The position numbers were made by a program, and so were the translations under genes. The notes beneath the pieces were generated by a model. That model saw only the letters and a program-made list of their open reading frames with translations. It searched no databases and had not been told where the DNA came from. 42,261 nucleotides of DNA, taken from assembly GCA_000708835.1 (NCBI GenBank), contig DF237687.1:1-42261 (forward strand), written 5' to 3'. Source of the stretch: Klebsormidium nitens (lineage: Eukaryota; Plantae; Klebsormidiophyceae). This document shows positions 3,154 through 30,630 of the stretch, piece after piece; the stretch's first letter is position 1, and every line of letters starts with the position of its first letter.

Positions 3154-3231
3154 ATTTGAGACAGTTTTGAGAAGCCTCTGGTGTTTGATTGTAAGGTGTT
3201 TTCGGTCTGGATTGCAAACGAGTGCTGATAT

Positions 3232-3414
3232 TCAATTCTTATGCATGTTATGTATCAGCTTTGCGATCGTGCTCACTAGCTCTATATGCTCAAAGTCAGT
3301 GCGTCGCAGCAGGTCTTTGACCAGCACTGTCTTTCCCACGGCTCTCACACCGATTATCAAGATGGTCTTGTTCTCGATGGTCGAGGGAGCAAACTTTCTG
3401 ATAGAAAGCTCCAT
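3232..3414 (-). pseudogene. Truncated A32-like (NCLDV packaging ATPase) N-terminal fragment
   Basis: MELSIRKFAPSTIENKTILIIGVRAVGKTVLVKDLL resembles the phycodna/mimivirus A32 start (M-x-L-x-KF-x-P...IG-x4-GK[ST]-x-LV-x-D) with a Walker A. Stops after 60 aa with no Walker B. Confidence 0.6.
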
Positions 3415-3528
3415 TCTTTTGTGTCACAAAATCTATTACCGATTCTCAACGCGGCTGACCTGTTTCTAAGCAGAGGAAAGTACATTCTGATTTCAGGAAG
3501 CTTTGCTCGCTCGTATGTTTGTCAGAGA

Positions 3529-3972
3529 TTACGGGTCACTCTGGTCACTCTCGGAAATGTCCGAGTCGGGATCTTGCAATTTTTGCGAAAGAGTAGCTTC
3601 GATCTTCGCAAGGATGAAGGGGACATATTCATCACTATGCAAGAGTCTGATGATTTTCCGAAAGATTCTTTCGGACAAGCCACCATCGTCATACATATCC
3701 AAGTCAGCGTCCCGTACAAACTGTTCGAATCGTTTCAAGAGACTGGTATCGACGACTCCAGATTTCAACAATTGATCCACTATTATGATGAGTATGTCCG
3801 CTAGAGCGTATGAATCGGAACATAAATGTCGTTTGGTTTGAGTATGTAATGCTCCTAGATCCATCAGTATCGATGCATGACATTTTATATTACGCGACGA
3901 GGACGCACCTAGTTTTGATGCACAATAGGGTATTCTGCGATCGCAAGCGTCATCATATCCATTTTCGAACAA
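3529..3972 (-). CDS. Hypothetical protein, AT-richer viral-like block
   Basis: 147-aa ATG-initiated intronless ORF with helical, acidic C-terminus; no family recognised. Confidence 0.5.
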   Translation of the reverse strand: MFENGYDDACDRRIPYCASKLGASSSRNIKCHASILMDLGALHTQTKRHLCSDSYALADILIIIVDQLLKSGVVDTSLLKRFEQFVRDADLDMYDDGGLSERIFRKIIRLLHSDEYVPFILAKIEATLSQKLQDPDSDISESDQSDP

Positions 3973-4042
3973 AAATGTAGGCGTCTGGCGGTAGATGCGT
4001 CAACACGGCAACATTTTCTTTCTTTATGAATCCATAATCATC

Positions 4043-4303
4043 ATGATTTCGTGTCCAAAGTGCTCGAGTGGTCTCGTCCAAGAAGGGTCGAAAAATAATC
4101 GATGCATCGCTTGTGATCACAAGTGGAAGCTGAAGTATTCTATGACTTTCAAGTGTTCAGGTTGTTCGTATTCTGGGCCTCTACCGGGCACGTGGATGCG
4201 TCTATACAAAGATGGGAGAACAGATTGGTTTTCGTGCACCACGTGTGGTATGCACAACAACGGAGACTCAATCAGTAGTAAAGTCGAGCTCGAGGATGTC
4301 TGA
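4043..4303 (+). CDS. Small zinc-ribbon protein
   Basis: MISCPKC...CIAC...CSGC...CTTC: four CxxC pairs in 86 aa. Confidence 0.6.
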   Translation: MISCPKCSSGLVQEGSKNNRCIACDHKWKLKYSMTFKCSGCSYSGPLPGTWMRLYKDGRTDWFSCTTCGMHNNGDSISSKVELEDV

Positions 4304-4802
4304 TTGTTTGCGGCAGAGAACTGAAGACGCTACCAGAACGCGTCGATATAGGGCGAACAGATTCCTCGGGATACAACAGAGAGAATATGGCGTCTTCTCG
4401 GTTAGCAGCTCGTCTCCAGACTATCCAGGCAGCGGTCCTACCGCCCCCTGCAGAAAGACAGTATCTGCATCAGTTATGCATGTTTTGTAATGTTTGATGG
4501 CCAATTGTCAAGTTAGTACCGATTGGTCAGATTATAAGCTAGGGGCCAATGATCGGCTTCAAAGTGACTTTCCATCATGTTGCAACCGTTGGCTTCGCTG
4601 CTCAGTTAGAACATCCTGAGCAGCACTGCCAAGTGTCCGTGCCAAACTGTAACGGTATCTCATGTATGTGCCATGCGAATTACAGACAATGAGTCGCACG
4701 GTATCAACGCTCAGCATGCTTGCATCATCCGGATACCATCCTACACTGCCGTAGGTTGAAGTGGTCCTGCGCGTTTTTATCTTAACTCAAAGAAAGACAA
4801 AG

Positions 4803-5544
4803 ATGCCGTCCCTAGCCAGAGCGTATAGACCGTCCCTTCACATGACGAAGACGAAGAAGACCGGGTCGTCACGTGCCCTTGTTCGCCAGCCCCGCCGCCA
4901 CATCCACTCGACGACTGATGCAGTGGAACGTTTGAGGGACGGCCAGCTCAGGCGACTTGCCAGAATGGCCGGTGTGGTGCGCATCAACGGTGAGCTCTAT
5001 GATGCAGTGCGCGGCTGGATCAGGAGGATTGTTGAGCGCTTTGTCAAGGACGCCGTCATCTACACCGAGTACCTTCGTCACAAGATCATTACCAGGGACG
5101 ACATGCTCAATGCCTGGCAACGCAACTTTGGCCAGATGTACGGCGCAACCGTTGCTGCCAAAAAGCACTGCCGCCTGTTCAAGAAGAGGTCCGAGGGCGG
5201 ACGCCCTGCCCGTCCGGGTCGACGCGCCTTGCAGGAGGTCAGGCATTACCAGAAGCAGGCGGACTGCCTGCACTTTTTCTTCTCCGCGTTTTCCGACCTA
5301 CTGCGCTCTGTGGCACATGATTAACGTTGCGCAAGATAGGGGCATCAAGCTATCCAAGGATGCGGTCACGGTTGCGCAGGTTTGTGTAGAGGCTCTGGTC
5401 GTGCACTTGCTTGCCATGGGCCAGCTGGCTGCTATTCATGACAGCGAGCGCAAAACTCTACAACCGAAGGATCTGGCACTCGTCCGCACCTTCTTGGATC
5501 AATCCCTAGCTCACTGCCCCACCAACACCATGCCCACTCTGTAG
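4803..5544 (+). pseudogene. Viral-type H4-H3 doublet histone, interrupted by a 1-nt frameshift at ~5322
   Basis: LRRLARMAGVVRINGELYDAVRG...KDAVIYTEY...MYG aligns to H4. RPGRRALQEVRHYQK...FSDLLRSVAHD aligns to H3 alphaN/alpha1. After an extra T (GAT-T-AAC) the +1 frame gives KLSKDAV...EALVVHL...AAIHDSERKTLQPKDLALVR, matching H3 alpha2-alpha3. Confidence 0.88.
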
Positions 5545-5557
5545 GCTTTCCCGAACC

Positions 5558-5983
5558 TCACTGCCTCGAAACATTCTGCCGATAAGCATTTGAGTCGCCT
5601 ATATTTCCCGGCGGAGAGAATTTTGCGACATACAAATATGCCCCGCCGTCCATCTGGGTCACACCTGCCCCAATCTTTCTGGTATTCTTCCACACAATCT
5701 GCGTGCCATGGCCGGTCTTGTTGTTGAATCCAGGCCGCTCGTAATCGTAGAGGTCCATCTCTTTTGCCCACCAGTCTATTGCGGTGCGCATGTCCGGCTC
5801 GAAGCTCCACACTTTTGCCAGGTTCTCCCCGTACTGTCGATCGGTTGAGTGAACAAACTGCTTCCGATTCGCCCAGTCCTGAGCGCACCTGGCAAGTGCG
5901 TCGTCCCAAACAAGGGCGGGCGCCCCGTGCCTGCGTCTGATATCATTGATGCGTGCAAGTACTTGTGCCTGATTCAGTGACAT
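5558..5983 (-). CDS. CAP/SCP/PR-1 superfamily protein, no signal peptide
   Basis: INDIRRRHGAPALVWDDALA-x-AQDWA, HS-x4-YGENL, W-x2-E-x3-YDY, TGHGTQIVWK and PPGN are CAP signature motifs. Confidence 0.92.
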   Translation of the reverse strand: MSLNQAQVLARINDIRRRHGAPALVWDDALARCAQDWANRKQFVHSTDRQYGENLAKVWSFEPDMRTAIDWWAKEMDLYDYERPGFNNKTGHGTQIVWKNTRKIGAGVTQMDGGAYLYVAKFSPPGNIGDSNAYRQNVSRQ

Positions 5984-6020
5984 GCTCGGTACAATCCGCA
6001 AAGGTTTTGTTTAGGGCTGC

Positions 6021-6689
6021 TTAGTTGCACTTGCAAGTGCAGCTCTTCAGTTCATATGAGTTGTAGCAGACCTGCAAGGGGTCTTCTGTCGGTGCTGGGC
6101 CCGGCGCCATTGCGGGCGAGCTAGTAGGCTCGTCACATGGTGCTTGAGCGGGGGCTGGGCTTGGAGCGTCAATCGGTAGATTTTCGGGCGGAGGGGATGG
6201 TTGGACTGTTGGGGCTGGTGCAATTGGTTGCGGAGCGGGCGCCATGGGCTGCGGAGCAGGCGCGTCCGTTGTGTTGTCACAGGGGGCATCCGTCTGTGTT
6301 GGAGTTGGGGTGGGAGACTCTGTTGGGGTTGGAGTGGGGGCTTCGGTGGGGGCTTCAGTTGGTGTGGGTGTTGGACTCTCGGTTGGAGGTGGCGGAGGGG
6401 GGTTTGGTGGCGGATTTGGTGGCGGGTTCGGCGGTGTGGGTGTTGGACTCTCGGTTGGAGGTGGCGGAGGGCTCTGTGTCTCTGTTGGCTGGGGTGGGGG
6501 AGAGCTCTGTGTTGTCACTGGAGGCGGGTAATTGTACGAGATCGGAAGTGATTCCGGGCTAGGGGTTTGAGTGACGTTGTGGCAGGTGTGATTTGCACAC
6601 AAGAGAGACCTTCGCGAGATGCTTGCAGCAGAGGCAGAAGTGGTCAGCATGGCAAGCACCAAGAACGGGGCTACCCACATAGCCCTCAT
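6021..6689 (-). CDS. Secreted Pro/Thr-rich, arabinogalactan/extensin-like glycoprotein
   Basis: Hydrophobic leader (MRAMWVAPFLVLAMLTTSASA); SPPPP, TPTP, TEAP and APAP repeats; Cys clusters at both ends; intronless. Confidence 0.7.
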   Translation of the reverse strand: MRAMWVAPFLVLAMLTTSASAASISRRSLLCANHTCHNVTQTPSPESLPISYNYPPPVTTQSSPPPQPTETQSPPPPPTESPTPTPPNPPPNPPPNPPPPPPTESPTPTPTEAPTEAPTPTPTESPTPTPTQTDAPCDNTTDAPAPQPMAPAPQPIAPAPTVQPSPPPENLPIDAPSPAPAQAPCDEPTSSPAMAPGPAPTEDPLQVCYNSYELKSCTCKCN

Positions 6690-6963
6690 AGCTGTTACCA
6701 TGGTTCTCGGAAAAAATTCATGGCAAACCAACCGAAGCATCTGATTTTGTTCACAAAGTGTATGCAAGCATGTTTCTTTACTACTGCCTGATCGCTCTGC
6801 TGGTGCTTGGCCTCTTGATTGACTTCAAAGCTGTTGAGCAGTTCACTCCATGGGCCGAAGTGAATCCAAGACTTTTTCAAAGATACATGGCATCACCAGG
6901 CGTCTGAGCAGCACAGAATCATTGCTTAGGAACTTGCAGGACCCCAAGAAGCATCAATCCAAC

Positions 6964-8028
6964 ATGGCTTCTCCAGTCGTGCAAAAGTCGTACGTGTGCA
7001 ATCATGAAGATTGTGGTGCAGAGTACACGAGAAGTAGCAACCTTGCTCGACACAAACGAAAGCATACGGATGAAAAGCAGTTTGTGTGCTCCCACCTTAA
7101 CTGTGATGCTGCTTACACAAGGGTTGACGCCTTGAGATCTCACCAATGTACGCACTCAGATGAGAGGAACTTCGTGTGTTCTGAAGCGGATTGTGGCGCT
7201 GCCTTCAAGACAAGCAATCATCTTGTACGACACGAACTTGCACACACCGATAAATCACTGTCGAAATGCGCTTATCCAGGTTGTGGTGCCCTGTTGAAGA
7301 GAGGAGATACTCTTCTTCGGCACGAACGTACACATAATGATGAGAAGGCTCTCAAGTGCTCCTACTACATGGGCTGCAACGCTGCTTTTGCGAGGCGAGA
7401 CACTCTCACCTTACACGAACGGACGCATTCGGGCATAAAGCCATTCGCATGCAGCGAAGCTGGCTGCGATGAAGCATTTTCAAGGAGCGACGCCCTAAAG
7501 ACACACGTCTTCTATTACCACACGGAAAAAGGCCAGCAGCGTCGGAAGCGCGAGGAGGAGCGGATTGCCAAGCTTCTCACGACGGCCGGACTCCCTTTCA
7601 AGCGCGAGCATCATGTGACCTTTGACTGCTTGGGGGGCTCGTTCGCGCGTATCGACTTCATCCTCGACCACAAAGGGAAGATCATTGTGATTGAGGTTGA
7701 CGAGTACCAGCACGAAGGCTACGGAGTGGCTTGCGATGTGGCACGAATGCTGCAGATCTACGAGGCGTGGGCCATCGAAGGCAACTCACTGCCCGTGCAC
7801 ATCATTCGCTACAACCCTCATACGTTCCAGATTGATGGGAAGCGAGCAGCGGTCACACGCAAGATTCGAGAGGCACGTCTGCTCGAAGCCATCAATGAGG
7901 CAGCAGAGATGGAGTCAGAAGGTCTGCACATTCAATACATGTACTACGATCTGAAGGATGGCAAGCCAGCAATAATGGAGGATGAGGCATTTACCATTAC
8001 AGACTGTTGCCTGGACGCAATTGTGTGA
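6964..8028 (+). CDS. Six C2H2 zinc fingers fused to a Vsr/DUF559-like PD-(D/E)XK nuclease domain
   Basis: Six C-x4/5-C-x12-H-x3/4-H units with TGEKP-like linkers (TDEKQF, SDERNF, SGIKPF). C-terminal E...RIDF...IEVDEYQH...C-x3-RM...IIRYNP pattern, which I recognise from giant-virus endonucleases. Confidence 0.82.
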   Translation: MASPVVQKSYVCNHEDCGAEYTRSSNLARHKRKHTDEKQFVCSHLNCDAAYTRVDALRSHQCTHSDERNFVCSEADCGAAFKTSNHLVRHELAHTDKSLSKCAYPGCGALLKRGDTLLRHERTHNDEKALKCSYYMGCNAAFARRDTLTLHERTHSGIKPFACSEAGCDEAFSRSDALKTHVFYYHTEKGQQRRKREEERIAKLLTTAGLPFKREHHVTFDCLGGSFARIDFILDHKGKIIVIEVDEYQHEGYGVACDVARMLQIYEAWAIEGNSLPVHIIRYNPHTFQIDGKRAAVTRKIREARLLEAINEAAEMESEGLHIQYMYYDLKDGKPAIMEDEAFTITDCCLDAIV

Positions 8029-8155
8029 TGTGATCTGCTACACTTGTACAGTCAGTACAGTACAGCTTAAGTTTGAAAGGGTGCGGAATCTCTAATCAAT
8101 ATCACGGGCTTCCTATAACCAGTGTCCACAAATTTCCTCAACATACGAGTAAGTG

Positions 8156-9820
8156 ATGCAGTGTGCTTGCAGAACGAAACGGGGGCGACGCTGCTCCCTC
8201 CCCGCCAAAGCTAATTCCCGCTACTGTCGTCTCCACCATTTCTGTCATCAGAACGGTGCTGAGTCTCACGTTCCTGACGTAGCGCAGTGCATGTGCGTGG
8301 TCCAGACCGGTCACAGACAGTGTTCACGTGTAGCAGAGCCTGGCAGCACTCTCTGCTGGCAGCACAGATATTGCAGTAAGATCTTTCGAGGACAGACAAG
8401 ACCCCGATCGGGCAGGAGAAGCGGTGTGGGCACACAGACAGGAAGATTCAACAGAGGCACGCAGGTCGGAGGGGTCAACGTGGGCACACAGACAGGAAGA
8501 TTCAACAGAGGCACCCAGGTCGGTGGAGCCAACACGGGCACACAGGTAGGAAGATTCAACAGAGGCACACAGGTTGGGGGGACCAACATGGGCGGAGGTA
8601 CTGATGTTGGCACCGGCACGAATTCAATCACGCGTCCTGTAGTGAGCAGAGGGACGAGCGGACCCCGTCAAGTGACATTTGCAAGTACCGGCGTAGGCCC
8701 GAATGCAGGTCCGAATCGCGCGAGCTTTGGCACGAATGCACGCCCACTTCCAACCTTTGCAAGCACTGCAGCTGGCTCAGATGCAGCGCGGAGCCGTGGA
8801 ACGAGTGCACGCCCTCTCCCAAACTTTGCAAACAAGGCAGCAGGTCCAAATGCACGCCCGCCACGTGCAAACATGGGGACGGCTACCAATGTGGATGATG
8901 CTTGTGCCCTCCTCGCTCGAAGCATGCCATGTACGGACATCCTCAGGGTCCTTGGTATATGGGAACCGAGTCTGACAGAGAGTGAAGCAAGGTCTCGTTT
9001 TGAAAGCTGGGTTCAACAGTACACTGCCAGGTACGGTCAAACAGAGCTTCTGCGGAGAGTGAATGATTGCTTCCAGAGCGTTCGAGACAATGCATGGATT
9101 AACGCAGACGGAGGTCTGCTCAACGAGGAGGCTGATTTCGCCGAAGAAGACCCCCTTGCAGGTCTCGATCAGCCGAGGCGCCGGTACCACGGCCGGGCAA
9201 GGAGTGGGAACCAAGTTGCACCAAGGAGGGCGTTTGTTGGAAGCGGTCAAGGTGCTAGGCGGGAGGGGCTTTCTGCAGAGCTTCGGAGAATCAAGAAGGA
9301 AAGGGAACTTGAGGCTGAGATGAGTGAGTCTGAGGACTGTGAAAAGTTGCTTTTAAAGCACATTTTCAGGCGAACACGAGCTGAGACTAAGAAAGCATGG
9401 ATAAAATTCTCCCTACAATTCCATCCAGACAAGAATCCGGAACTGAACGCGAGGTTTGGAGTTTACTTCAGAAAGGTCAAGGACTGCTAGTATGACAGAT
9501 TCAAGGAAGAAACGTCCCATTGGGACGATGCACAGTGGGCAGCAGTTTACGACCACTACACAGCACACGTCCCATCCGGCCCTTCTCCTTCCATTCCAGA
9601 CCCCAGTCCTGGCCCAATTCCTGACCCAGTGATTCCGGATGACCCAATGCACGTCGACCCAATTCCTGCCCTAGAGGTCCCCAATGACCCAATGCAGGTC
9701 GACCCACAGGTGAGGGACAGGCGCAGAGCAGCTCCGCACGCTTTTCCAGACTATTGGGATATTGCAAACCGCTTGCCTGGCGCCAAAAGAAGTAGACGGG
9801 ACGGTGCTGGGTCTTCCTAA
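8156..9820 (+). pseudogene. Cys3His-motif / TQT-repeat / J-domain protein with in-frame TAG at 9488-9490
   Basis: Two N-terminal C-x6/7-G-x2-C-x9-C-x2-H motifs; 18-aa repeats; a degenerate J-like helical unit; KKAWIKFSLQFHPDKNPE (HPD). The frame stays open after the TAG (YDRFKEE...GAGSS) to TAA at 9820. Confidence 0.7.
8426..8590 (+). repeat. 54-bp coding tandem repeat, three copies (VGTQTGRFNRGTQVGGxN)
   Basis: Units start at 8426, 8480 and 8534. Confidence 0.92.
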
Positions 9821-9872
9821 CAGAACCGTGCTCATACTGGTAGGGCTTGAAGCGCCCCACAAAGGATTCCTA

Positions 9873-10241
9873 GGGGTGGCCGCTCTTCACAGAATGTGAG
9901 CATGTACGGCAACGCTTTAGCAGATACTCTGGCACATGCGCATGCAAGGGCAGTGATGAACAGATGGTCCCGTCAAAGACAACCCAAGCAGAAAACGGGC
10001 CCCCCACTCGAACCAAACGTCAGTCTGCCCAGCAGTAAAAGACTTCGAGACGGTGTTGCCCCAAGCGTCCCTCGAAGGAGCGGAAGGACAAGAAGGCCCC
10101 CGGTTCAGTATGCAACCGGCGTTTACCCGCCACGGGGTGGCCGCTCTTCACTGAATGTGAGCATGTACGGCAACGCTTTAGCAGATACTCTGGCAGATGC
10201 GCATGCAAGGGCAGTGATGAACAGATGGTCCCGTCAAAGAC
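9873..10241 (+). repeat. ~108-bp near-identical direct repeat, 261-bp (87-codon) period
   Basis: GGGGTGGCCGCTCTTCAC...CCCGTCAAAGAC at 9873-9980 and 10134-10241. Confidence 0.9.
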
Positions 10242-12332
10242 ACGAGCAAGCCGAGCGAAACCGGGCCGACCACAACAGAGTCTGGCAAGAAGCGCTTCGG
10301 CGGCACGAGATGAGGAGGCAGGAGCTTCAGAGCAGGAAGAGAAAGACAGATGCTGGCGGGTCCAGTCCTCACAGGACCAAACGGACAAAAGGGAACGAGG
10401 CTGACCAGAGACAATCTGCCCGGGTCAGGTGGCAGCCCAACCAGTTGTCTTACAACCGTCTTGGACAGCAAAGGAGCGCGCGTACGAAAGCACAACGGAT
10501 GGTCCCCAAGCGCCCCAAGAAAACCGCTAAGAACACGCCTGGACTCTCCGGAGAGACAGCGGCGAGACAGCAGTCCGCGAANNNNNNNNNNNNNNNNNNN
10601 NNNNNNNNNNNNNNNNNNNNNNNNNNNNNNNNNNNNNNNNNNNNNNNNNNNNNNNNNNNNNNNNNNNNNNNNNNNNNNNNNNNNNNNNNNNNNNNNNNNN
10701 NNNNNNNNNNNNNNNNNNNNNNNNNNNNNNNNNNNNNNNNNNNNNNNNNNNNNNNNNNNNNNNNNNNNNNNNNNNNNNNNNNNNNNNNNNNNNNNNNNNN
10801 NNNNNNNNNNNNNNNNNNNNNNNNNNNNNNNNNNNNNNNNNNNNNNNNNNNNNNNNNNNNNNNNNNNNNNNNNNNNNNNNNNNNNNNNNNNNNNNNNNNN
10901 NNNNNNNNNNNNNNNNNNNNNNNNNNNNNNNNNNNNNNNNNNNNNNNNNNNNNNNNNNNNNNNNNNNNNNNNNNNNNNNNNNNNNNNNNNNNNNNNNNNN
11001 NNNNNNNNNNNNNNNNNNNNNNNNNNNNNNNNNNNNNNNNNNNNNNNNNNNNNNNNNNNNNNNNNNNNNNNNNNNNNNNNNNNNNNNNNNNNNNNNNNNN
11101 NNNNNNNNNNNNNNNNNNNNNNNNNNNNNNNNNNNNNNNNNNNNNNNNNNNNNNNNNNNNNNNNNNNNNNNNNNNNNNNNNNNNNNNNNNNNNNNNNNNN
11201 NNNNNNNNNNNNNNNNNNNNNNNNNNNNNNNNNNNNNNNNNNNNNNNNNNNNNNNNNNNNNNNNNNNNNNNNNNNNNNNNNNNNNNNNNNNNNNNNNNNN
11301 NNNNNNNNNNNNNNNNNNNNNNNNNNNNNNNNNNNNNNNNNNNNNNNNNNNNNNNNNNNNNNNNNNNNNNNAGTCAGATGGCAGCCCAACCAAATGGAAA
11401 CGCAAGTTTCACCGTACGAAAATGAAGCCGTAGGCTTCAATGTCGATGTGGACAATGCCGATCAGTTAGAAGCAGAAAGGCACGTGAATGCAGCTGCAAT
11501 AGCAGTAAACAGGGCCAGAAACTCAACAAACAGACCACTGCAGAACGAGAACCTTCGGAATGCTTCTGAACACTTGCAACAAGTACCTGGTGGAACGTTA
11601 CATTTGGATGTTGCACAGGAGGCTATCAATGATGCAATGAATGCCACGACCGGAGATGCTGCCGTGCAACACATGGATGTTGCTCAGACACACATTCAGG
11701 AGGAGCCACGAAGGAGTGCAAGGACAAGGAGGCCAGTGGTCCGGGTGGCAAACGCCGTTTACCCACCACGGGGTGGCCGTGCGGCACAGAATATAAACAT
11801 GTACCGTGACCCTCCGAGAAACAATCGGGCACGTGCCCACGTCCAGGCAGCCCTTGATGCGGTGGCAAACGGTCAAGGTAGGGCGATCGCAAATGCACAC
11901 ATCAAGCAGGCAGTCAACAATCTGCAACCTGATGCACCCAATGCCCGCCAAATTGCAGCCAGTGTGGTCGAGGCTAACAATGCAATCAATGCCCAAAGTG
12001 CGGCAGCTGCCGCTCAGCACGTAGCAAACGCTCAAGACCATTTGATGAATAATGCTGGCCCTTCCCAGCCCAACACAAGTGGCCAATGGACAAGTGCTAG
12101 AAGCAACTTTGGACCTCCCAGTGCAAGTCCCAGAACACCTTCGAACCACACCCTCATCACTTCAGATGGGCGGCCAACTACGTATGGCATCTTTAGAAGG
12201 ACCAGGAACTCGAGTGGACGCTTGCAGCATCATAAATCAGTCTCGAAGGGTGATGGTGAATATGGGTGGAAGGCCTGCTCCAAAGAAGCATACAACAAGA
12301 GCACTACAGCAAAGAAGGTGAACCTGTCCTAA
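9902..12332 (+). CDS. Arg-rich then Ala/Asn/Gln-rich repetitive protein spanning an assembly gap
   Basis: Open frame on both sides of the gap, with shared motifs PRRS[GA]RTRRP...VYPPRGGR and VRWQPNQ before and after it, suggesting a single gene. Confidence 0.6.
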
Positions 12333-12377
12333 TCTGCGTCAAGAAAGCACATGCTTTTCCCAACATATCTGAGAAGA

Positions 12378-12641
12378 ATGGAGCTCCCAATCCTAGTGGT
12401 CAGGCCCAGTCCATCAGCATCAAAGGAGGCGGTTCTGACTGCCGCGATGGATCACTGGTTTGCACGAGCAGTCTCGGTGCTGGAAGCAGGTCCCTTGTCC
12501 GAACTTACAGGTATTATACGTGCTCAATGTGAACTCATGCTAGCTTGGAATGCTGTTCGCCCAATAAAGCAAGACATAACCGCAAAGCTGAGTTTGCCTT
12601 GCTTAGGCACTGTCAGGTGCTACCTTCAAAATGTGCAATAG
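12378..12641 (+). CDS. Small hypothetical protein
   Basis: ATG ORF of 87 aa (MELPILVV...), helical composition, no motif. Confidence 0.35.
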   Translation: MELPILVVRPSPSASKEAVLTAAMDHWFARAVSVLEAGPLSELTGIIRAQCELMLAWNAVRPIKQDITAKLSLPCLGTVRCYLQNVQ

Positions 12642-12925: not shown

Positions 12926-13207
12926 TCAAGCATGCATGTACAAGGGCCTGGAGCGTAGGTAATCAAGGGTACACCTTCGATTGATGAAATACACATACCT
13001 GGCATTGTCCAGCTTCTTCTGCAATTCCCGCATGTTGCGTTGGTGGCCATCTTCAATGCTGCGTGTCTCCTTATCATGTATTCTGTTGCGCTCGCGATTC
13101 AGCATGTCATCCCGCAACTCCCTGGCTTGGTGACGTGTCAGAGGGGGCGGCAGAGCAGCATCGCTATCCAAAAACTCTGTAAGCTGTTTCAGTGTGTACT
13201 CCTCCAT
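12926..13207 (-). CDS. Hypothetical coiled-coil protein, possibly spliced
   Basis: MEEYTLKQLTEFLD...RELQKKLDNAR reads as protein; AG|GTATGT donor-like site after LDNAR. Confidence 0.3.
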   Translation of the reverse strand: MEEYTLKQLTEFLDSDAALPPPLTRHQARELRDDMLNRERNRIHDKETRSIEDGHQRNMRELQKKLDNARYVYFINRRCTLDYLRSRPLYMHA

Positions 13208-13733
13208 TGCACTTGGGGCAGACAAATTCTTCATGGAGAACGCGCTCAACCGTTGTGTTGATTGGCGAGTACCTGCTCCTTCTCTGCTTACTCATACCCC
13301 AGCTGCCACTTTTGTTCCGCAAATCTGGACCGGGCGGACCGGGTGGACAGACTGTCAGCCCGCCTTCCTCGGGATAGCGTCCGAGGAAAACCCAACTCTC
13401 CGAAATTCGGCGACGAAGCGAAGGGCGGCCGCGCTTGTTGCTTTTGATGACGCAGTTCGCGTCGGCTGAGAGCAACACGGTGCCAATTGCGACGATAATA
13501 GGAAACGGCGACACGCTTCATAGACGACTTGACGGCAATCAATGGACGACAAACATCCTTTTTAGAGCGCAACCGGTGCCAGAATATCCAAAAGACGGAT
13601 CTGCCTTCATGGTATGATTTTGTGCCAGACTCCTTTTCCCTAATCCAACCGCTGTAGCCCTCACTGCAAATGCTTGTGACTACAGCAAAGAGGTGAACGT
13701 GTCCTGATTACATCATCTGATACTGGTCGAGCT

Positions 13734-14530: not shown

Positions 14531-14893
<363 letters not shown>

Positions 14894-20815: not shown

Positions 20816-20985
20816 GAACACCGCAATGGCAGTGCACCGTTCGTGCATCGGTGCTTAGGGCGACAGATCAAGCCACAAGTAGCAACTTTCTGGCTAGTAT
20901 AGAGGCTGCTCTCAGGGAAGAGGCGGCCCCTGTGTCAACACTTAGGGCGATCGCTCCGGTCGAGATTGGCAACTCTGCTGGCGTC

Positions 20986-22881: not shown

Positions 22882-23631
22882 CCGCCTCACGCTGGCGTCC
22901 ATGTTGGCAGTCCACGGCTGCCGCGTGAAGGGGTGTCTCCTGCCGGTCCGTCCGTTGCGGACGCTTCGTATAGCATTCTCGTGGTAGATCCTGGGGACCG
23001 TCCCATTACGCCGCAATTCGCTCTCCAGGTACCGATACTTTGCGAGGTTGATGTTTGCTGACCTGTTGACCTCAGTCCAGTTGGAGTTGATAAAGGCGGT
23101 ATTGTTTGCAATAACCCCTGCGTTGCCCAGAGGGTCTCTTACGTTTCCCTGAGGGGCGTTCCGAGCGTTCACAGAGCCTGGATTCTGTGGATCGAATATG
23201 ATCCGACCCGGGCGCGGTCTCCCTTCTGCGAGCCGTCTGCTCCATTCTTCATACTCTTCTCCCCTATACCACATGACCTTAGGAGCCAGCCCGCGGTTGA
23301 AGGACATCTCAAGGATGTCACCAGCAATGTTCACCGGTTGATAGTCATGTGTGTACATGCCGACCCACGCGTCACCAACATAATGTGAACCATCACCATA
23401 GTAACCAGGCACAGGGACCCCATCAACACAGGTTGCAATCCTCAGCCCCCGCTCTTCATTATCGTAGACAATGGATACGGTTGGCGAGCCGGGCTCATCC
23501 CACGTTACCAGGAGCATGCATTCAGCTTCATTTGCCCCCCATCGGACTCGCCTCAGAGCTGTCAGAAGGCGTGGTTTCAAGGTTCTCTCCAGGTCTTCTG
23601 CTTGCGCATTAGTCATTCTTGGCACTTCCAT
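22873..23631 (-). CDS. Hypothetical protein with a degenerate U-box/RING-like C-terminus
   Basis: RIYHENAIRSV...RHPFTRQPW resembles the Y-x3-AI...PFTR-x-P end of U-box folds; Asn-rich linker; overlaps the convergent gene by 9 nt. Confidence 0.5.
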   Translation of the reverse strand: MEVPRMTNAQAEDLERTLKPRLLTALRRVRWGANEAECMLLVTWDEPGSPTVSIVYDNEERGLRIATCVDGVPVPGYYGDGSHYVGDAWVGMYTHDYQPVNIAGDILEMSFNRGLAPKVMWYRGEEYEEWSRRLAEGRPRPGRIIFDPQNPGSVNARNAPQGNVRDPLGNAGVIANNTAFINSNWTEVNRSANINLAKYRYLESELRRNGTVPRIYHENAIRSVRNGRTGRRHPFTRQPWTANMDASVRRLR

Positions 23632-23673
23632 TGCTTCCTAATGCTACTCAAGAAAAGAAGGCAGAGATTGTAG

Positions 23674-25821
23674 TCATGAGCCATCCCACGTTTGGAAGCA
23701 CCTAAACTCGTTCTCAGCAGCAACCTCCCTCACAAGTTGCTCAAAGGGCCCGTTAAGCCGGTCCTTCCGGATGCAGATGTCCCGCATGAACGTGTCGCCA
23801 GAATCTCGAGGGAACTCGGCACGCCTGCCGAGCTCTGGATTGTTGCTGGCTCCAGGCATCACGCACAGATACCTAAAGACATCGACATGTTGCTCGTTCT
23901 GGGGCAGATGAGTGTGGCTTTTGAAGCGCGCAGCCCGTGCAATTGCCTGATTCTCGCTCGTAGAATTCCATTGCGGCTCGAGCATGTGGAAGTAGCGCGT
24001 GCCTTTGAGATTAAGACCTTCGCCACCTGCCTCTGAAAGTATGAGAACGTGCAGATCGTCATTGTTGAAAGCTTCGATTGCATCAGTCCGTTGCTTCAGT
24101 GACTTTGTGCCAATAATCTCACCGAAAGGGATGTTTTCGGCTGCCAGCAGCATCCTCAGGGTGCCCACTCCGTGCATGTTCACCGAGTGCGTGAAAAAGA
24201 CTGTTTTGCACCGCCGCCAGGTGTCATCGTCGGGGGACGGCCCCAAACGGCTCACGAGGTGCCTTACAGCAAGCTTCAGCTTCGGACACACAATCTGCAT
24301 GTTGCCTCCCGCGTGATTCGCAGCCGCTACGCCGGCAGCCAATTCAATGCCCGCCACGTCTGGCGGTGAGACCAGGACACCATCCCGGTAGACAAGGCTG
24401 TTACAAATGGCGCGGGCGGTGTCATAAAATCGCATCAGCTCGGGGTCTGGCTCTCCCGTGAGGTCTGCATCATAGTATGATTGAGGGGGCTCACCGTGAG
24501 CCTCTTGGGCCATCACCTGGGAAGGGGTCATCCTCACGATTGTGTCCCGGATAGTCATCCTCGGGTACCGCAGGTCATCGGCTGGCGATCTGTATGCCAA
24601 GACTGCGCAACTCAAAGCGGCCCTCATGAGGGCTCGCTGCGCCATGCCATCATTTCCAAAGACCGTGTTGAACCCCTTTCGGCTCGTGGGCATGCATCCT
24701 GGCTTGATCATGTCGAGGATTGGAGCAATATCGCTGGGTTGATTTACAACGGGTGTACCGCTGAGCAGCACAATCTTGCCAGCTGCACGCCCGCCCACCG
24801 CAATACGGTCTGAGCGCTGTTTCCCCGAGTTACGTGCATTGTGAACCTCATCAATCACGAGGATTGCATCCCTGCAAAAGGCCTTGATGTGTTCTTGAGG
24901 CATCTTGTCAAACGAGTTGTGAGTTCCGAGATGGATCTCACCCACGTTGGCAATCGGTGCATACCGCTGCATCTCACTCTCCCAAGTGTCCAGCATCGAG
25001 GCAGGTGCCAGGATGACGGTCCGGCCATACTTACCCGGAAATTGTCGCCTAAGGTTGTCGATGCAAGCGATCGCAGTCAGTGTCTTCCCGGCTCCCATCG
25101 AGTAGAGCAGGAGCGCACCCCTGACATGAGGTTGCAACAGCAGGCAGACGGCCTGAATTTGATGACGGTGGAGCCTCCACGGAGGGCCGGGCTGTTCAGC
25201 AGCCTCCAGGTTCACATTAGCTGCAACCGGCCCATATATCGCCCTAACATTCCGGAGGCCCGTGCAAGCAATCTCGTTCTCCATGTTTGCTTGCGTCGGG
25301 GCTTGCAAGGCGGAGTTGTTGGCAGCTTTCGAACGCCTGTACTTGGGTTCGAGATGCGGCCCAGGGCCAGGCTCCCGGTGCTCAGGACGTATCGGTGTTC
25401 TCCCTGTGGCATAGTTCATGTACCGTTGGATCAGCTCCAGTTGTTCGTTGTCCCGCTTTCGTTTTCTGGACCGCGCTGTTTTGTTGTTGGGGTTGTTGTT
25501 CTGCCTTGACGGCCCCGCACCTCGAGCGTTTGCTTGACGGTGGAAGAAGCCAGACGCCAATCTTTTTTGAAAGTTTGCTTCAGACATGGCGTTTCCTGCT
25601 CGCTGATTGGGGCTGTGAGTCCGTCTCGAGGGCCCCGCACCTCGTGCGTTCTCCTGACGGTGGAAAAAGCCAGATTCCAACCTTCTCTGCAGGTTTGCAT
25701 CAGACATGGCGTTTCGGGCGTATGCTTCTCGCCACGGTGTCTCATCAATCGAGGCTTCATCAGCTTCACTATTGCTGTTGAGCACGATGACTTCCTTTCC
25801 TTTTCTTTGACGATTGGACAT
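23674..25821 (-). CDS. NCLDV D6/D11 (VETF small subunit / NPH-I)-like SF2 helicase
   Basis: HQ motif, YSMGAGKT (I), APAS (Ia), IDEVHN (II), LSGTP (III), EAGGEGLNLKG (V), EPQWN...QAIARAARFKSH-x2-LP (VI); intronless. Confidence 0.9.
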   Translation of the reverse strand: MSNRQRKGKEVIVLNSNSEADEASIDETPWREAYARNAMSDANLQRRLESGFFHRQENARGAGPSRRTHSPNQRAGNAMSEANFQKRLASGFFHRQANARGAGPSRQNNNPNNKTARSRKRKRDNEQLELIQRYMNYATGRTPIRPEHREPGPGPHLEPKYRRSKAANNSALQAPTQANMENEIACTGLRNVRAIYGPVAANVNLEAAEQPGPPWRLHRHQIQAVCLLLQPHVRGALLLYSMGAGKTLTAIACIDNLRRQFPGKYGRTVILAPASMLDTWESEMQRYAPIANVGEIHLGTHNSFDKMPQEHIKAFCRDAILVIDEVHNARNSGKQRSDRIAVGGRAAGKIVLLSGTPVVNQPSDIAPILDMIKPGCMPTSRKGFNTVFGNDGMAQRALMRAALSCAVLAYRSPADDLRYPRMTIRDTIVRMTPSQVMAQEAHGEPPQSYYDADLTGEPDPELMRFYDTARAICNSLVYRDGVLVSPPDVAGIELAAGVAAANHAGGNMQIVCPKLKLAVRHLVSRLGPSPDDDTWRRCKTVFFTHSVNMHGVGTLRMLLAAENIPFGEIIGTKSLKQRTDAIEAFNNDDLHVLILSEAGGEGLNLKGTRYFHMLEPQWNSTSENQAIARAARFKSHTHLPQNEQHVDVFRYLCVMPGASNNPELGRRAEFPRDSGDTFMRDICIRKDRLNGPFEQLVREVAAENEFRCFQTWDGS

Positions 25822-25857
25822 CTTTAAAAAAGACACACAAATTCTCATAGCTTAGAG

Positions 25858-25977
25858 GCTTGCGCAGATGCGCGGATGAGCAGGTGATGTCAACCCCCCT
25901 ACTATAGTGAAAAAGAGGGGATCACAGATTTTGTAATACTTTTGAAAGTTGCGCTCCATCTGTGTATGTGCGTAAGC
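25858..25977 (+). repeat. Solo copy of the IR-bounded element, 36 bp upstream of the helicase start codon
   Basis: GCTTGCGCA...TGCGTAAGC ends; CAACCCCCCTACTATAGTGAAAAAGAGGGG...ACTTTTGAAAGTTGCGCTCCATC core. Confidence 0.85.
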
Positions 25978-26114
25978 TTGTCATACATTACAACATTGCA
26001 TTATTGCACAGGAGTAAACCCGTGCATAAACCCGTGCAGAAACACCAAACTGAGAGTATGGGTATGAGAGTAGGGTAGTATGCCTGTGGCAGTCTCTGTT
26101 ATTGTTACACGCAC

Positions 26115-26405
26115 TTACAATTTAGCTTGTAAACTACTTGCCGAACTGAAATCAACGTGGCAGGAAGTCTCTGCCATTGCTACGGGGTTGGGGTTCTTGC
26201 GTGTTATATATTTCTCTCTCAAACTTTCTTCCTGTTCTTTCATACCTTCCCCCACCCGTTTCCAGTACCGGACACACTCTTCGTCTCTGCACATACGCGG
26301 GTGGACCTCGATACATTGTTGCAACGTAAAACCACCATCCCTGCGAAACCACCAAAATTCCAGGAATCTTTTGGCATCGCGGCGGGGGAACAAATATTTA
26401 AACAT
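26115..26405 (-). CDS. Hypothetical protein, possibly with an upstream exon
   Basis: MFKYLFPRRDAKRFLEFWW...EEQEESLREK-like helical ORF, preceded by a TTGCAG acceptor-like site. Confidence 0.35.
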   Translation of the reverse strand: MFKYLFPRRDAKRFLEFWWFRRDGGFTLQQCIEVHPRMCRDEECVRYWKRVGEGMKEQEESLREKYITRKNPNPVAMAETSCHVDFSSASSLQAKL

Positions 26406-27343
26406 ACACCTGCAAGCCCAGAGTAAGTGGATCAGAAACCAACATTGAGAGGGGCATTGGTGGGACAAAGGAGGGCCATTGACAGACCAGCATATGAAAG
26501 GTGGCACCTTGATGAACTTTGGATGAATGCGGCAATATTCCAGGAAATGAGCTTCTGCTTCAAGTCAGAAATGAGACGAAGCTTGCACCCATCGGTTTTG
26601 CAAGAGCTTACGTGTCCATGCAGTGAGGTCGGTTGCATAATACCCCGCTCAGCTGAGTGAATCGTTGAGACAGATCATGCCCCCCCCCCCCCAGCCGAGA
26701 GGATGACCAGTCCAATTATCTGCAATTGAAATCTCAAACAGGTGACTCTTATACAAGAGAGGGATACCCAAGCGGAAGCGAACTTAGGCAACCTAGGCTC
26801 GTGCCAAATTGGAGTCTAAAAGAATGGCCGTAAAGGTGAGTCCTGCTGCTAGTCAACGGCTCAGTCTTGAACGAAGAGTCTTGAAGGTTATACATTTGGT
26901 CGTCAGAATGCCGTTGATAGCAAAACATCGATGGCTTAGAGGGACCGTCGCCCGGATAATCGTGACACGTCGGCCAAAGGCAGGATGTTGAGATCTGTGA
27001 CACGTCACGTCTGACCTGGACAAGTGTCAACTAACTTCGTTCTTAAACAGGTCCCGAATGGTAATGACGAGATCGACGGCTCAGATTTTACTTCCTTGGA
27101 GGTCCTAGGTCGAAAGGGTTCAGTCTTGGTCGCGCAGAGCTGCGAGCAGAGCTGTCTGGGCATCTCACGCGGCATAGCTTCACATCCACCTTGTTCCGGA
27201 TTGGAGGCATCTGAGGAGTAAATATAACTGTAGGAGTCTCTTCCAATGAAAGTTGGTGAGCAGATCTCAACCAATCGAGTAACTTATCGATATCGAAATT
27301 ACTAATCTCATAAACTGCTACGCGTGATAGTCTTCGTTTTTAT

Positions 27344-27700
27344 ATGCCCCTAAATGTCATGGCGACCCAAGTTATCCCCTTACAAAGAGTGTTTGCAATG
27401 CACAGTGGCACGATGTGCCCCCCAAAGTCGCCTACTCCACAGCATATGATCGGCCGTTTTTGTATCAAGGTGACCACAGACCTTATTGATAGCACTGGAT
27501 TGCGACGCATGACATTCAAGGGGTATGGGCCTGATGAGGCTTTCATCAAGCAAAAGACGGTAGCCGCTCGTGACAGGCACAAGCGGGAGGAAGACTCTGT
27601 GACGGAGCCGTTGATAACGACAATTGGTGTGTGTGATCTTTGTGACAACCGTATTGAAGTGCACAACATCAAATCCAGATCATGCTACCATCTGCTATAA
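27344..27700 (+). CDS. Hypothetical protein with a C-terminal CxxC
   Basis: ATG ORF of 118 aa, convergent with the next gene (19-bp gap); CDLC motif. Confidence 0.45.
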   Translation: MPLNVMATQVIPLQRVFAMHSGTMCPPKSPTPQHMIGRFCIKVTTDLIDSTGLRRMTFKGYGPDEAFIKQKTVAARDRHKREEDSVTEPLITTIGVCDLCDNRIEVHNIKSRSCYHLL

Positions 27701-27719
27701 GGTCTTGCGTGAGTACAAG

Positions 27720-28100
27720 TCAGTGAACCTCATTGAGATCCTCATCAACGGCAGAACCATAACGGCTTAACAGATCATCCTTCATGCTCTCAAAGCTTTG
27801 CCAAGCAGCGAAGCCTCCTTTGGCCCTTCGTTTCTCGAGGATCCTTTGTAACACAAGGTTCTGCATGGCGGCCTTTTCTCTCTCATTCGAGGGAACCTCT
27901 TCAGCTCGCAAGCCTGCTGCTGCTGGGTTGCTGGCAATCTCCGAGACCTCTGCAGCAATGACATTCTCGACAGCTAGGCAGGTCATGATCCGCTCCTTGC
28001 GCGCTTCCTCCATTGCTTCCCAGAGGGCCTCTGCCATCTCCAGTGCAAGGAGCTGCTGTGGGGGGCTCAGGTCCTCCGTGGTCCGGAACTCGGTGTCCAT
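27720..28100 (-). CDS. Hypothetical alpha-helical acidic protein
   Basis: 126-aa ATG ORF, E/A/L-rich helical pattern; divergent from the kinase gene. Confidence 0.55.
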   Translation of the reverse strand: MDTEFRTTEDLSPPQQLLALEMAEALWEAMEEARKERIMTCLAVENVIAAEVSEIASNPAAAGLRAEEVPSNEREKAAMQNLVLQRILEKRRAKGGFAAWQSFESMKDDLLSRYGSAVDEDLNEVH

Positions 28101-28126
28101 TCGGTGACTGGAGCAGTAAAATAAAG

Positions 28127-29819
28127 ATGATCCATGACAACGCACCAAGCAGGATGCACCGGTACAGCAGATCAGATGAAATCCTTGGTTCATCTGAATT
28201 CAAGTCCGTCTACTCTGGCTTTGACCACCAGCAGGGGGTGGCAATTGCCTGGTCTGTGATTGACCTAAAGTCAGGGGACTGCACGGACCAGCTGGTGCGG
28301 ACGCTCCAGCTCATCCAGAGGGTTGAGCACGACCACATCGTGCGCATCCATGACTGGTTTCTGGACCCAGATTCGGGAAAGATGCACGTGGTCACTGACC
28401 TCTTTAGGCCCGGGAACCTGCGGGACCTGCTGAAGGCCGCTGGCACGATAGATGAAATCGTGCTGAGAAGGTGGGGGTGCGACCTGCTGACCGCTATCTC
28501 CTTTGTTCACAGCCTCGATGGCCCTCTCTTCATCCGGAACCTGCGCATGGGAAACGTGGGCNNNNNNNNNNNNNNNNNNNNNNNNNNNNNNNNNNNNNNN
28601 NNNNNNNNNNNNNNNNNNNNNNNNNNNNNNNNNNNNNNNNNNNNNNNNNNNNNNNNNNNNNNNNNNNNNNNNNNNNNNNNNNNNNNNNNNNNNNNNNNNN
28701 NNNNNNNNNNNNNNNNNNNNNNNNNNNNNNNNNNNNNNNNNNNNNNNNNNNNNNNNNNNNNNNNNNNNNNNNNNNNNNNNNNNNNNNNNNNNNNNNNNNN
28801 NNNNNNNNNNNNNNNNNNNNNNNNNNNNNNNNNNNNNNNNNNNNNNNNNNNNNNNNNNNNNNNNNNNNNNNNNNNNNNNNNNNNNNNNNNNNNNNNNNNN
28901 NNNNNNNNNNNNNNNNNNNNNNNNNNNNNNNNNNNNNNNNNNNNNNNNNNNNNNNNNNNNNNNNNNNNNNNNNNNNNNNNNNNNNNNNNNNNNNNNNNNN
29001 NNNNNNNNNNNNNNNNNNNNNNNNAACGCCCCCGTGTTGGTTCATCAGGACGTTGGGGTCATCAAGCTGGATCTGCTGAGCGTTTCGTTTCTGTTCACAT
29101 CCCACGGGTATGCCAGGGAGAGGGTGGAGGCGATCAGGGTCATGTCTCCAGAGCATTTGCTAGGCCCAAGCGATGAGAAGGTGGATATCTACGGGTTTGG
29201 CATGGTCATGCTGGAGGCAGCCACCAGGCTCCAACCGTACAAGGAATGCAGCACGGTTGCAAGCCTCTACGACAAGGTGACACACTTTCAGCCCCCAAAA
29301 GCTCTTGGTGAGGTAAAGGACAAAGGCCTGCGCGACATCATAAAGAGGACGTTGCTGAGGGCGTGCGAGCGGCCCTCCGCACACGAGTTGCTCAACCTCC
29401 CCTACTTTCGATTCGAGCCTAGCCTCTGGGGTATGCATGTGGTGGTAATTGACGACGACCCAGTGAACCTCAGGATGTGCACCAGGCTTTTGGAAAAGGA
29501 GGGCGTCACTGTTGTCCCCTGTAACACTTTCAACGAAGTGATCGCCCTACTGTCCACCCGGGCTTTTGCAGCTCTCATCACTGACATTATTATGCCAATG
29601 ATGAACGGTTTCGAGATGAGCGCAAGGTTGCGGCAGCTGAGGTACAGCTCGCTGATGATCATTGGGATCAGTGCGCAGGAGAGAAAGGACCTTGACGAAC
29701 GCATGGCAGAGAGTGGGATGGATGCGTTTGTGCAGAAGCCCTTTACATTCGAGAACCTGCGGGTTGCATTTACAAGGGCCCGCCTCAGAAGAACTTCGAG
29801 CGCCAAGGAAGTTGCTTAG
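28127..29819 (+). CDS. WNK-like pseudokinase fused to a C-terminal response-regulator receiver (REC) domain
   Basis: RY-x2-DEILG-x3-FKSVY-x2-FD-x3-G-x2-IAW, VDIYGFGM-x2-LE...PYKEC...LYDKV and R-x-SAHELL-x2-P-x-F match WNK kinases. REC: VVVIDDD, LITDIIMPMMNG, IIGISA, FVQKP. A gap lies between subdomains VIb and VII. Confidence 0.88.
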
Positions 29820-29833
29820 GGACCGTTTCATTC

Positions 29834-30630
29834 AGGTATGGCCTTACATACATACATATTGGCAACTGGGAACCAAAGGGGAAACTCTGTACTACTAATC
29901 TGTTATATTCTCCNNNNNNNNNNNNNNNNNNNNNNNNNNNNNNNNNNNNNNNNNNNNNNNNNNNNNNNNNNNNNNNNNNNNNNNNNNNNNNNNNNNNNNN
30001 NNNNNNNNNNNNNNNNNNNNNNNNNNNNNNNNNNNNNNNNNNNNNNNNNNNNNNNNNNNNNNNNNNNNNNNNNNNNNNNNNNNNNNNNNNNNNNNNNNNN
30101 NNNNNNNNNNNNNNNNNNNNNNNNNNNNNNNNNNNNNNNNNNNNNNNNNNNNNNNNNNNNNNNNNNNNNNNNNNNNNNNNNNNNNNNNNNNNNNNNNNNN
30201 NNNNNNNNNNNNNNNNNNNNNNNNNNNNNNNNNNNNNNNNNNNNNNNNNNNNNNNNNNNNNNNNNNNNNNNNNNNNNNNNNNNNNNNNNNNNNNNNNNNN
30301 NNNNNNNNNNNNNNNNNNNNNNNNNNNNNNNNNNNNNNNNNNNNNNNNNNNNNNNNNNNNNNNNNNNNNNNNNNNNNNNNNNNNNNNNNNNNNNNNNNNN
30401 NNNNNNNNNNNNNNNNNNNNNNNNNNNNNNNNNNNNNNNNNNNNNNNNNNNNNNNNNNNNNNNNNNNNNNNNNNNNNNNNNNNNNNNNNNNNNNNNNNNN
30501 NNNNNNNNNNNNNNNNNNTTCTCCAAAAAGTCAATGACAATATAAGGTCTTTTTGGAGGTATGGCCTTACATACATACATATTGGCAACTGGGAGCCAAA
30601 GGGGAAACTCTGTACTGCTAATCTGTTATA
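29834..30630. repeat. 112-bp tandem repeat with an internal hairpin, spanning an assembly gap
   Basis: GGTATGGCCTTACATACATAC...AATCTGTTATA occurs on both sides of the gap. Full unit 30519-30630 contains CTCCAAAAAG-18nt-CTTTTTGGAG. Confidence 0.8.

Follow-up and report, generated by a model that had tools for sequence, protein, structure and literature searches.

Is the middle of a Klebsormidium nitens scaffold a giant virus lodged in an algal chromosome, and if so, in what state is it and what kind of virus left it there? We addressed this for contig DF237687.1 (assembly GCA_000708835.1), which is one whole scaffold and was analysed over its full 42,261 nucleotides (nt; the window). We consider it highly probable that a 26.5-kb block at about 3,259-29,819 is a methylated, decaying piece of an integrated genome of the Nucleocytoviricota (nucleocytoplasmic large DNA viruses, NCLDVs), which would be unable to make virus alone. 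An insert of this sort is an expected kind of feature in K. nitens. An earlier, sequence-only reading had proposed about 27 kb of endogenous giant virus at 3,200-30,630; the block itself stands, while its right limit moves to about 29,819, as 29,831-30,750 is a high-copy repeat. The presence of an endogenous giant virus in a streptophyte alga is likewise supported, although such inserts have already been published for this species (accessible text of PMC5294986 and PMC12344493).

Within 3,235-29,819, 23 called open reading frames (ORFs) occupy 75% of the non-N bases, at a median spacing of 120 nt (13 of 22 spacings are 150 nt or less), and no introns were seen in the block's viral genes. Six N gaps longer than 50 bases interrupt the scaffold. 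The features on which the argument depends are the following.

1-232, no strand: end of a very high-copy repeat, likely a long terminal repeat, in the non-viral flank (depth about 100,000 in run X1)
233-3,153, plus strand: multi-copy left-flank gene with predicted GT-AG introns and DEAD- and SAT-like helicase motifs (from sequence)
3,160-3,259, no strand: left junction zone (A32 identity ends at 3,259; the left-gene paralogue diverges after 3,159)
3,235-3,414, minus strand: divergent A32-like packaging ATPase, 5′ fragment of 52 codons cut at the junction (identity to protein P0207, BLAST, tree)
4,803-5,544, plus strand: H4-H3 histone doublet with both conserved cysteines (Pfam, profile, relatives)
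8,156-9,820, plus strand: ORF with CCCH-like fingers, 27-nt repeats and a J-domain-like HPD motif, with an in-frame stop at 9,488-9,490 (Pfam, sequence)
13,734-14,498, minus strand: HNH/endonuclease VII-like protein (PHROG 1035, E 3e-14; match to viral contig L128)
19,372-20,823, no strand: 213-nt tandem repeat array with an N gap inside; related inverted sequence at 25,911-25,976
20,986-22,881, plus strand: duplicated MSV199/antirepressor-like domains with a predicted nuclease-like middle (viral-contig and phage matches)
23,674-25,821, minus strand: NPH-I/D11-like superfamily 2 helicase (Pfam, PDB profile match)
25,911-25,976, no strand: dispersed repeat that recurs in a left-gene intron (25 nt identical at 1,340 and 25,941)
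28,127-29,819, plus strand: predicted WNK-like pseudokinase fused to a receiver domain (PDB WNK3/WNK1; Pfam Response_reg, E 2e-21)
29,831-30,750, no strand: high-copy repeat with an N gap, the right boundary (depth above 1,000)
32,004-36,532, plus strand: spliced host gene for a leucine-rich repeat (LRR) receptor-like protein, right flank (RNA-like run X14, Pfam LRR)

The viral character of the block is seen first in its helicase, for which vaccinia NPH-I (D11) was the best of 64 PDB matches (E 1e-16), above cellular SNF2 proteins, bearing out the D6/D11-like gene proposed from the sequence. Four relatives, 72-82% identical, lie on metagenome contigs of 25-62 kb. The longest contig recorded for one helicase relative (P0007, 74% identical) and for a histone-half protein (P0050) is 62,579 nt in both cases, so the two probably travel together. 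Locus searches with the helicase returned no close relatives and two distant loci, of which the one scanned, L001, encodes a SNF2-RING protein. A public gene model (GAQ91172.1, "ERCC-6"; P0003), which joins 27,720-28,100 to the helicase across about 1.9 kb, was rejected, the relatives starting at the helicase's own start. The MSV199-like protein (631 amino acids, aa) had been named as such beforehand, and this holds indirectly: it had no direct Pfam match at E ≤ 1, but BLAST against viral-contig proteins gave a best E of 5e-8, and four of the five of these proteins tested carry weak-to-passing MSV199 matches. Weak matches to phage antirepressors were found too. The HNH gene had been taken as typical of chloroviruses; because its type occurs in phages (116 matching records) and in NCLDV contigs alike, it gives no pointer to them.

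The A32-like gene proposed earlier is present through homology, but only as a 5′ fragment. The 52 aa encoded at 3,259-3,414 on the minus strand are identical to the start of the full-length, 225-aa protein P0207, which has two relatives at 76-79% (P0208 and P0209). None of the three matched an A32 profile directly. We therefore turned to 240 viral loci gathered by two A32 motifs, and found P0207 to be 31-36% identical, along its full length, to a first set of 69 full-length A32 proteins of IMG/VR contigs; all four such IMG/VR proteins tested matched Pfam Pox_A32, two of them above the cut-off. P0207 retains 55 of 119 conserved A32 columns, and Walker A and full-length A32 homology are present in P0207-P0209. 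The canonical Walker B and NGR motifs are lost in these proteins (DD to ED or EN; NGR to NNR or NNC), with D110 replaced by E and G131 by N in all three, both positions being canonical in 69 of 69 references. In a tree of 41 representatives out of 146 full-length matches, P0207 attaches beside L196, its best BLAST match (36%), on a branch of 4.6 changes per site that is too long to place; it falls outside the clade that we take to be prasinovirus-like. The P0207-type protein is likely, from its sequence, a degenerate A32 paralogue. A phage tblastn search with P0207 and a PDB search with P0208 were blank, a locus search found no close relatives of the A32-like gene, and a single-sequence fold of P0207 was unusable (predicted local distance difference test score, pLDDT, 39).

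That this DNA lies in the algal chromosome is supported by five observations: a left bridging contig, in-block repeats, broken genes, rearranged sister copies and the pattern of changes in run X5. The bridging contig, of 705 nt from run X1, spans 2,638-3,342 with 0 differences, across the end of A32 identity. The 25-nt match between the left gene and the block has an expectation of 0 in 100 shuffles. Three lesions mark the block, namely the truncated A32-like gene, a frameshift in the doublet and the in-frame stop of the J-like ORF. In X1, the doublet, nuclease and kinase genes have sister copies, and rearranged joints connect 6,867 to 8,115, 27,613 to 28,196, and 22,689 to 28,181.

Run X5 differs from the scaffold by C>T and G>A changes at 243 and 249 places in one listing and 187 and 124 in another, with 21 or fewer in any other class, and its loose ends read as C-to-T forms of the X1 loose ends; we infer a bisulfite library. 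Dense methylation of the block would give X5 coverage on the block and hardly any on the spliced gene. X5 covered 21 of 21 block bins (at least 85% alignment), at an X5/X1 depth ratio, a coarse measure, with a median of 0.78 and a minimum of 0.07, and the ratio over the four bins of the spliced LRR gene was 0-0.06. A strain difference could also have caused the X5 pattern. The RNA-like runs X11 and X14 have no contig on the block, which is no evidence of silence.

The mostly intact ORFs, the helicase relatives on contigs of 25-62 kb, the five N gaps between 10,582 and 30,518 and the unbridged right junction would also fit free or episomal virus DNA in the culture, mis-scaffolded to host contigs. 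We regard this as very unlikely, given that the left junction lies inside one contig, that the A32-like and histone genes are broken, that a repeat is common to block and flank, and that several divergent copies exist along with the X5 pattern. In the accessible text of PMC5294986, contamination of the genome is moreover argued against on the basis of how many marker copies exist and how far they diverge.

Several results weigh against integrated, methylated viral DNA. At least 8 of the 23 block ORFs have no usable match, and the block and its flanks are inseparable by GC content, GC content at third codon positions or CpG depletion. The earlier reading had proposed searching the scaffold for PolB, MCP (major capsid protein), RNA polymerase, VLTF3 and D5, and none was found within the frames covered: window frames of at least 50 aa gave zero MCP or VLTF3 matches against 249 viral loci carrying both, and PolB, D5 and RNA polymerase were absent from the 66 of 249 window frames that were Pfam-scanned. 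The library type of X5 is off record, and X5-only changes in CHH context (13 of 18 listed) are only modestly above the 58% background. X1 is possibly the source sample of the scaffold and hence not independent, no listed contig bridges the repeat and N gap at the right junction, and the left gene at 233-3,153 may itself be a transposon-borne or foreign helicase. Integration of an NCLDV fragment nevertheless remains the reading that we favour, and a block without capsid and polymerase genes would not make virus alone.

The missing core genes could be elsewhere, if the block were part of a larger provirus split across scaffolds and possibly active elsewhere in the genome. A full-length P0207, identical over the 52 shared residues, does exist, as does a sister doublet without the frameshift, and the accessible text of PMC5294986 reports five PolB, six ATPase, six MCP and five VLTF3 genes in K. 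nitens, grouping with Phycodnaviridae. We consider this very improbable, since the present copy is cut short on the left and is without core genes, and since the published marker copies are 40-92% similar and rearranged (PMC5294986, accessible text).

Another conceivable source is a Polinton-like element or giant transposon in which viral and host genes had accumulated. An A32-type ATPase occurs in Polintons too, and the multi-copy behaviour and transposon-rich flanks would suit such an element. This we hold to be extremely unlikely: no bounding inverted repeats were found among the four pairs detected, a protein-primed polymerase and an integrase were absent among the 66 frames scanned, and NPH-I, MSV199 and the doublet point to NCLDVs.

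For the favoured insertion from an NCLDV, viral DNA would have reached the chromosome through illegitimate recombination or as a later copy of another insert, broken within the A32-like gene; the block showed neither an integrase nor terminal repeats. The host would then have methylated the inserted DNA, and decay would have begun. Because most ORFs are still open, the insertion is probably not very old.

Which virus the DNA came from is a question that leads to the histone gene, the most unusual one in the block. As had been recognised from the sequence, 4,803-5,544 encodes an H4-H3 doublet, a single gene in the order H4 then H3, frameshifted near 5,320. The X1 sister doublet is 10 letters shorter at 5,321-5,332 and lacks the frameshift, and the intact doublet relatives P0001 and P0002 are 60-63% identical. 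We compiled 150 profile-listed proteins plus P0002 (151 in total), of which 118 matched both halves and 106 were left after long and canonical tandem rows were dropped. A cysteine is present in the connector in 90 of these 106 doublets and just after the H3 alpha-N helix in 93; both occur in 90, so that all doublets with the connector cysteine have the second one too. The Fisher value for this pairing, 4e-14, is overstated, since the doublets are related to one another and were collected with a profile that itself contains the two cysteines. The positions corresponding to H3 H113, D123 and L126, in what we take to be the usual numbering, are conserved in 82, 99 and 77 of the 106 doublets, respectively, an indication that the H3-H3 interface has been preserved. 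The melbournevirus connector lies against the segment after H3 alpha-N (PMC8357426, accessible text), and a disulfide staple has been published in an H2A variant (PMC12297534, accessible text). Because the melbournevirus connector contacts the region where the second cysteine lies, a connector-to-H3 cysteine staple is plausible in the doublet. The accessible literature yielded no report of a Klebsormidium viral doublet or of the doublet cysteine pair, most subscription papers, figures and supplements lying outside the search. Separately, one protein (P0052, in a four-member cluster) has ubiquitin fused ahead of an H4-H3 doublet with both cysteines.

Only one of seven loci with the doublet motif, the IMG/VR contig L128, truly encodes such a doublet. 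Its positions 1-12,471 hold VLTF3, the doublet, an HNH protein (32% identical to that of the window), an MCP-like protein, an MSV199/T5orf172 protein, a phage tail-collar domain protein and an MCP. Among solved capsids, this MCP is closest to chlorovirus Vp54 (281 bits; next virus, 167), a result that leads away from marseilleviruses without separating Algavirales from Imitervirales. Because the L128 doublet is only 25% identical to that of the window, L128 shows the viral context of the family and not the identity of the donor. A histone tree, built by a quick method with P0050 and 32 other rows excluded as non-doublets and with no named marseillevirus row, resolved no clade other than that of the three Klebsormidium-like rows. 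Of 247 PDB matches to the window doublet, the best 60 were eukaryotic H3, with no viral doublet among them; a doublet locus search found no close relatives, and no H2B-H2A doublet was present among the 66 window frames Pfam-scanned. According to the accessible parts of the literature, viral histone repeats occur chiefly in marseille-, irido- and medusaviruses (PMC11222145), Imitervirales metagenome-assembled genomes have been added to the carriers (PMC9145170), and H4-H3 is among the most abundant viral histone types (PMC13681535). Its relatives place the doublet in a broad family of metagenomic proteins with no particular link to Marseilleviridae.

The second gene of interest for the donor is the kinase-receiver gene. 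The best PDB matches of its kinase N-lobe are WNK3 and WNK1, HRD has become IRN and DFG has become DLL, so both the catalytic HRD Asp and the DFG-like motif of an active WNK kinase are missing, and the receiver keeps its acidic pocket, phospho-Asp and Lys motifs, as read from the sequence. We read 28,127-29,819 as a probable pseudokinase-receiver fusion; no such fusion was encountered in the literature, where no search aimed at it was made. The X1 and X10 contigs join 28,554 to 29,033 in frame, and the N gap inside the gene is thus likely an assembly artefact; an intron or insertion was considered and rejected, the gap being joined in both runs. Run X10, which is filed under another organism label, supplied a 1,986-nt contig with the kinase gene and its neighbour, at 139 other letters.

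The remaining ORFs of the block are as follows.

3,529-3,864, minus strand: orphan ORF, 111 aa, without Pfam or PHROG match
3,995-4,303, plus strand: small zinc-ribbon-like ORF (Pfam Zn_ribbon_RPB9, E 0.007, below cut-off)
5,558-5,983, minus strand: CAP/PR-1-like protein (Pfam CAP, E 2.5e-17)
6,021-6,740, minus strand: Pro/Thr-rich protein with hydrophobic N-terminus and Cys-rich end (sequence; no family)
6,964-8,028, plus strand: C2H2 zinc-finger array (six fingers by pattern) and predicted PD-(D/E)XK-like nuclease (Pfam zf-C2H2, E 2e-20; weak NERD)
9,902-12,332, plus strand: Arg/Asn/Ala-rich repetitive ORF or ORFs spanning the N gap at 10,582-11,371 (sequence; no family)
12,926-13,234, minus strand: orphan ORF, 102 aa, without Pfam or PHROG match
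14,654-14,893, plus strand: single ubiquitin with 3-residue extension and Arg at position 6 (Pfam, E 1e-31; PDB ubiquitin alignment)
16,132-16,779, minus strand: weak SET-like protein (Pfam SET, below cut-off)
16,884-17,480, minus strand: class I S-adenosylmethionine methyltransferase (Pfam Methyltransf_24, E 4e-14)
17,542-18,243, minus strand: orphan with a polyproline run, no meaningful Pfam family
18,319-19,296, minus strand: possible CE-clan (C48-like) cysteine protease, a lead only (Atlas neighbours)
22,873-23,631, minus strand: orphan ORF, 252 aa, without Pfam, PHROG or Atlas match
27,344-27,700, plus strand: small ORF with a single weak viral-contig match (L190, E 4e-4)
27,720-28,100, minus strand: orphan ORF adjoining the kinase gene, also in run X10 (X10 contig)

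The ubiquitin and signalling genes named in the sequence-only reading are confirmed by Pfam ubiquitin and kinase-receiver matches, whereas its cytoskeleton-like gene has no such Pfam family at 17,542-18,243, and its cell-wall-like gene had been called from Pro/Thr composition, with no Pfam family. A vSET gene was not supported either: the Pfam SET match has an E of 0.013, below cut-off, and no viral SET was present among the four PDB matches at E ≤ 10, where a vSET structure is presumably deposited. The earlier argument on lineage, which set a marseillevirus-like doublet beside a chlorovirus-like vSET and HNH, is therefore weak, with vSET unsupported, HNH common to phages and the doublet family not bound to Marseilleviridae. 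The "host manipulation" gene set had been deduced from domain names only, and host-manipulating roles for the ubiquitin, CAP, SET-like and pseudokinase genes are guesses.

Other observations concern single genes. In the ubiquitin, positions 6 and 10 are Arg and Ala, and the GG end is kept, followed by the three residues; the possible C48-like protease lies 3.4 kb away. The Atlas neighbours of the latter (18,322-19,296) score 0.78-0.80, under the 0.9 lead threshold, and are mostly Nucleocytoviricota; its single-sequence fold was unusable (pLDDT 34) and a phage tblastn search blank. A PDB search with the methyltransferase was blank as well. The C-terminus of the C2H2-nuclease protein matches EsV-1-7-type proteins of viral contigs, and an X1 sister copy skips 6,867-8,115, which contains this gene. 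A mobile endonuclease cassette or a deletion would give this pattern, and the gene is possibly a mobile cassette. No Rfam, tRNA or tmRNA matches were obtained in the window.

In the donor virus, the H4-H3 doublet would self-pair, and the resulting tailless (H4-H3)2 particle, which the cysteine staple may hold together, would serve to pack or shield viral DNA; the ubiquitin, CAP, SET-like and pseudokinase-receiver genes would have been captured as accessory genes. The earlier suggestion of a poorly characterised donor lineage agrees with the lack of a close cultured relative among our matches, though this window does not by itself point to one lineage. We tentatively raise the possibility, which we consider rather doubtful, of an undescribed Klebsormidium giant-virus lineage outside the marseille-, irido- and medusavirus groups, with a staple-locked tailless doublet from a large, so far unrecognised environmental NCLDV family and a WNK-pseudokinase-receiver fusion that would tap into the signalling of the host. 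No giant virus of a streptophyte alga had been isolated as of 2017, according to the accessible text of PMC5294986, so inserts are the main record of the gene content of such viruses. This insert ties the histone doublet to a named algal host, and the intact P0001 and P0002 allow direct testing of H4-H3 DNA wrapping without H2A-H2B and of the cysteine staple; it is the doublet family and the pseudokinase-receiver gene that merit further work.

To the left of the block, X5 loose ends behind 232 resemble what we take to be a primer-binding site. Second copies of the left gene in X1 have 56 other letters and skip 1,174-1,399, 1,672-1,861 and 2,139-2,277; the gene has no Pfam match, and a PDB search with its exon was blank. 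To the right, the X14 contig of the LRR gene has 0 differences and GT-AG joints at 32,173-32,504 and 32,612-33,186. Between the repeat and this gene, a 245-aa ORF without match at 31,282-32,019, with X5 coverage to about 31,715, could be part of either the methylated block or another element. Transposon-like remnants lie right of the LRR gene, and short repeats with a palindrome near 40,590-40,618 (within 40,330-40,680) resemble a transposon end. At the scaffold end we noted by eye what we presume to be an Ulp1-like motif (41,300-41,430, minus strand) and a Gypsy reverse-transcriptase-like frame (42,101-42,261, plus strand).

We lastly compared the locus with known systems. The P0207-type protein resembles the A32 packaging ATPase of Megaviricetes in its Walker A and in the identity along P0207, but differs in its altered Walker B and NGR and its long branch. 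The pseudokinase-receiver gene shares a WNK-like N-lobe with WNK kinases and the receiver motifs with response-regulator receivers; it differs from WNK kinases in the change of catalytic Asp to Asn and of DFG to DLL, and in being one intronless fused ORF. Giant endogenous viral elements (GEVEs) of like kind occur in green algae, and we take the genome first called "K. flaccidum" to be that now named K. nitens. Accessible text on the GEVEs of Amoebidium, which also mentions those of K. nitens (PMC11244446), describes Nucleocytoviricota DNA that is integrated, methylated and decaying, with inserted transposons or repeats; the block shares the decay and the repeats and, probably, the integration and methylation. 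In comparison with the Amoebidium and green-algal elements, the present block is only 26.5 kb long and shows no introns in its viral genes. The closest parallel is within the species: the accessible text of PMC5294986 describes multiple NCLDV inserts in K. nitens with captured plant-like genes (expansin and cyclin), methylated GEVEs are described there by PMC12344493, and CHG/CHH methylation is known on silent elements (PMC5890265). Species, dominance of viral genes alongside plant-like ones, rearranged copies and, probably, methylation are thus shared with these inserts, whereas this scaffold has no intact core marker but a bridged left junction. Such a junction, the H4-H3 doublet and the pseudokinase-receiver are not mentioned for the published Klebsormidium inserts in the accessible text, and the published figures may include this scaffold. 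With the Marseilleviridae H4-H3 doublet (accessible text of PMC8357426 and PMC9145170), the window doublet shares the order H4 then H3, a connector replacing the H3 tail and the conserved residues of the H3 four-helix bundle; it differs in having no H2B-H2A partner in the window and in its two co-conserved cysteines, which flank the H3 alpha-N helix.

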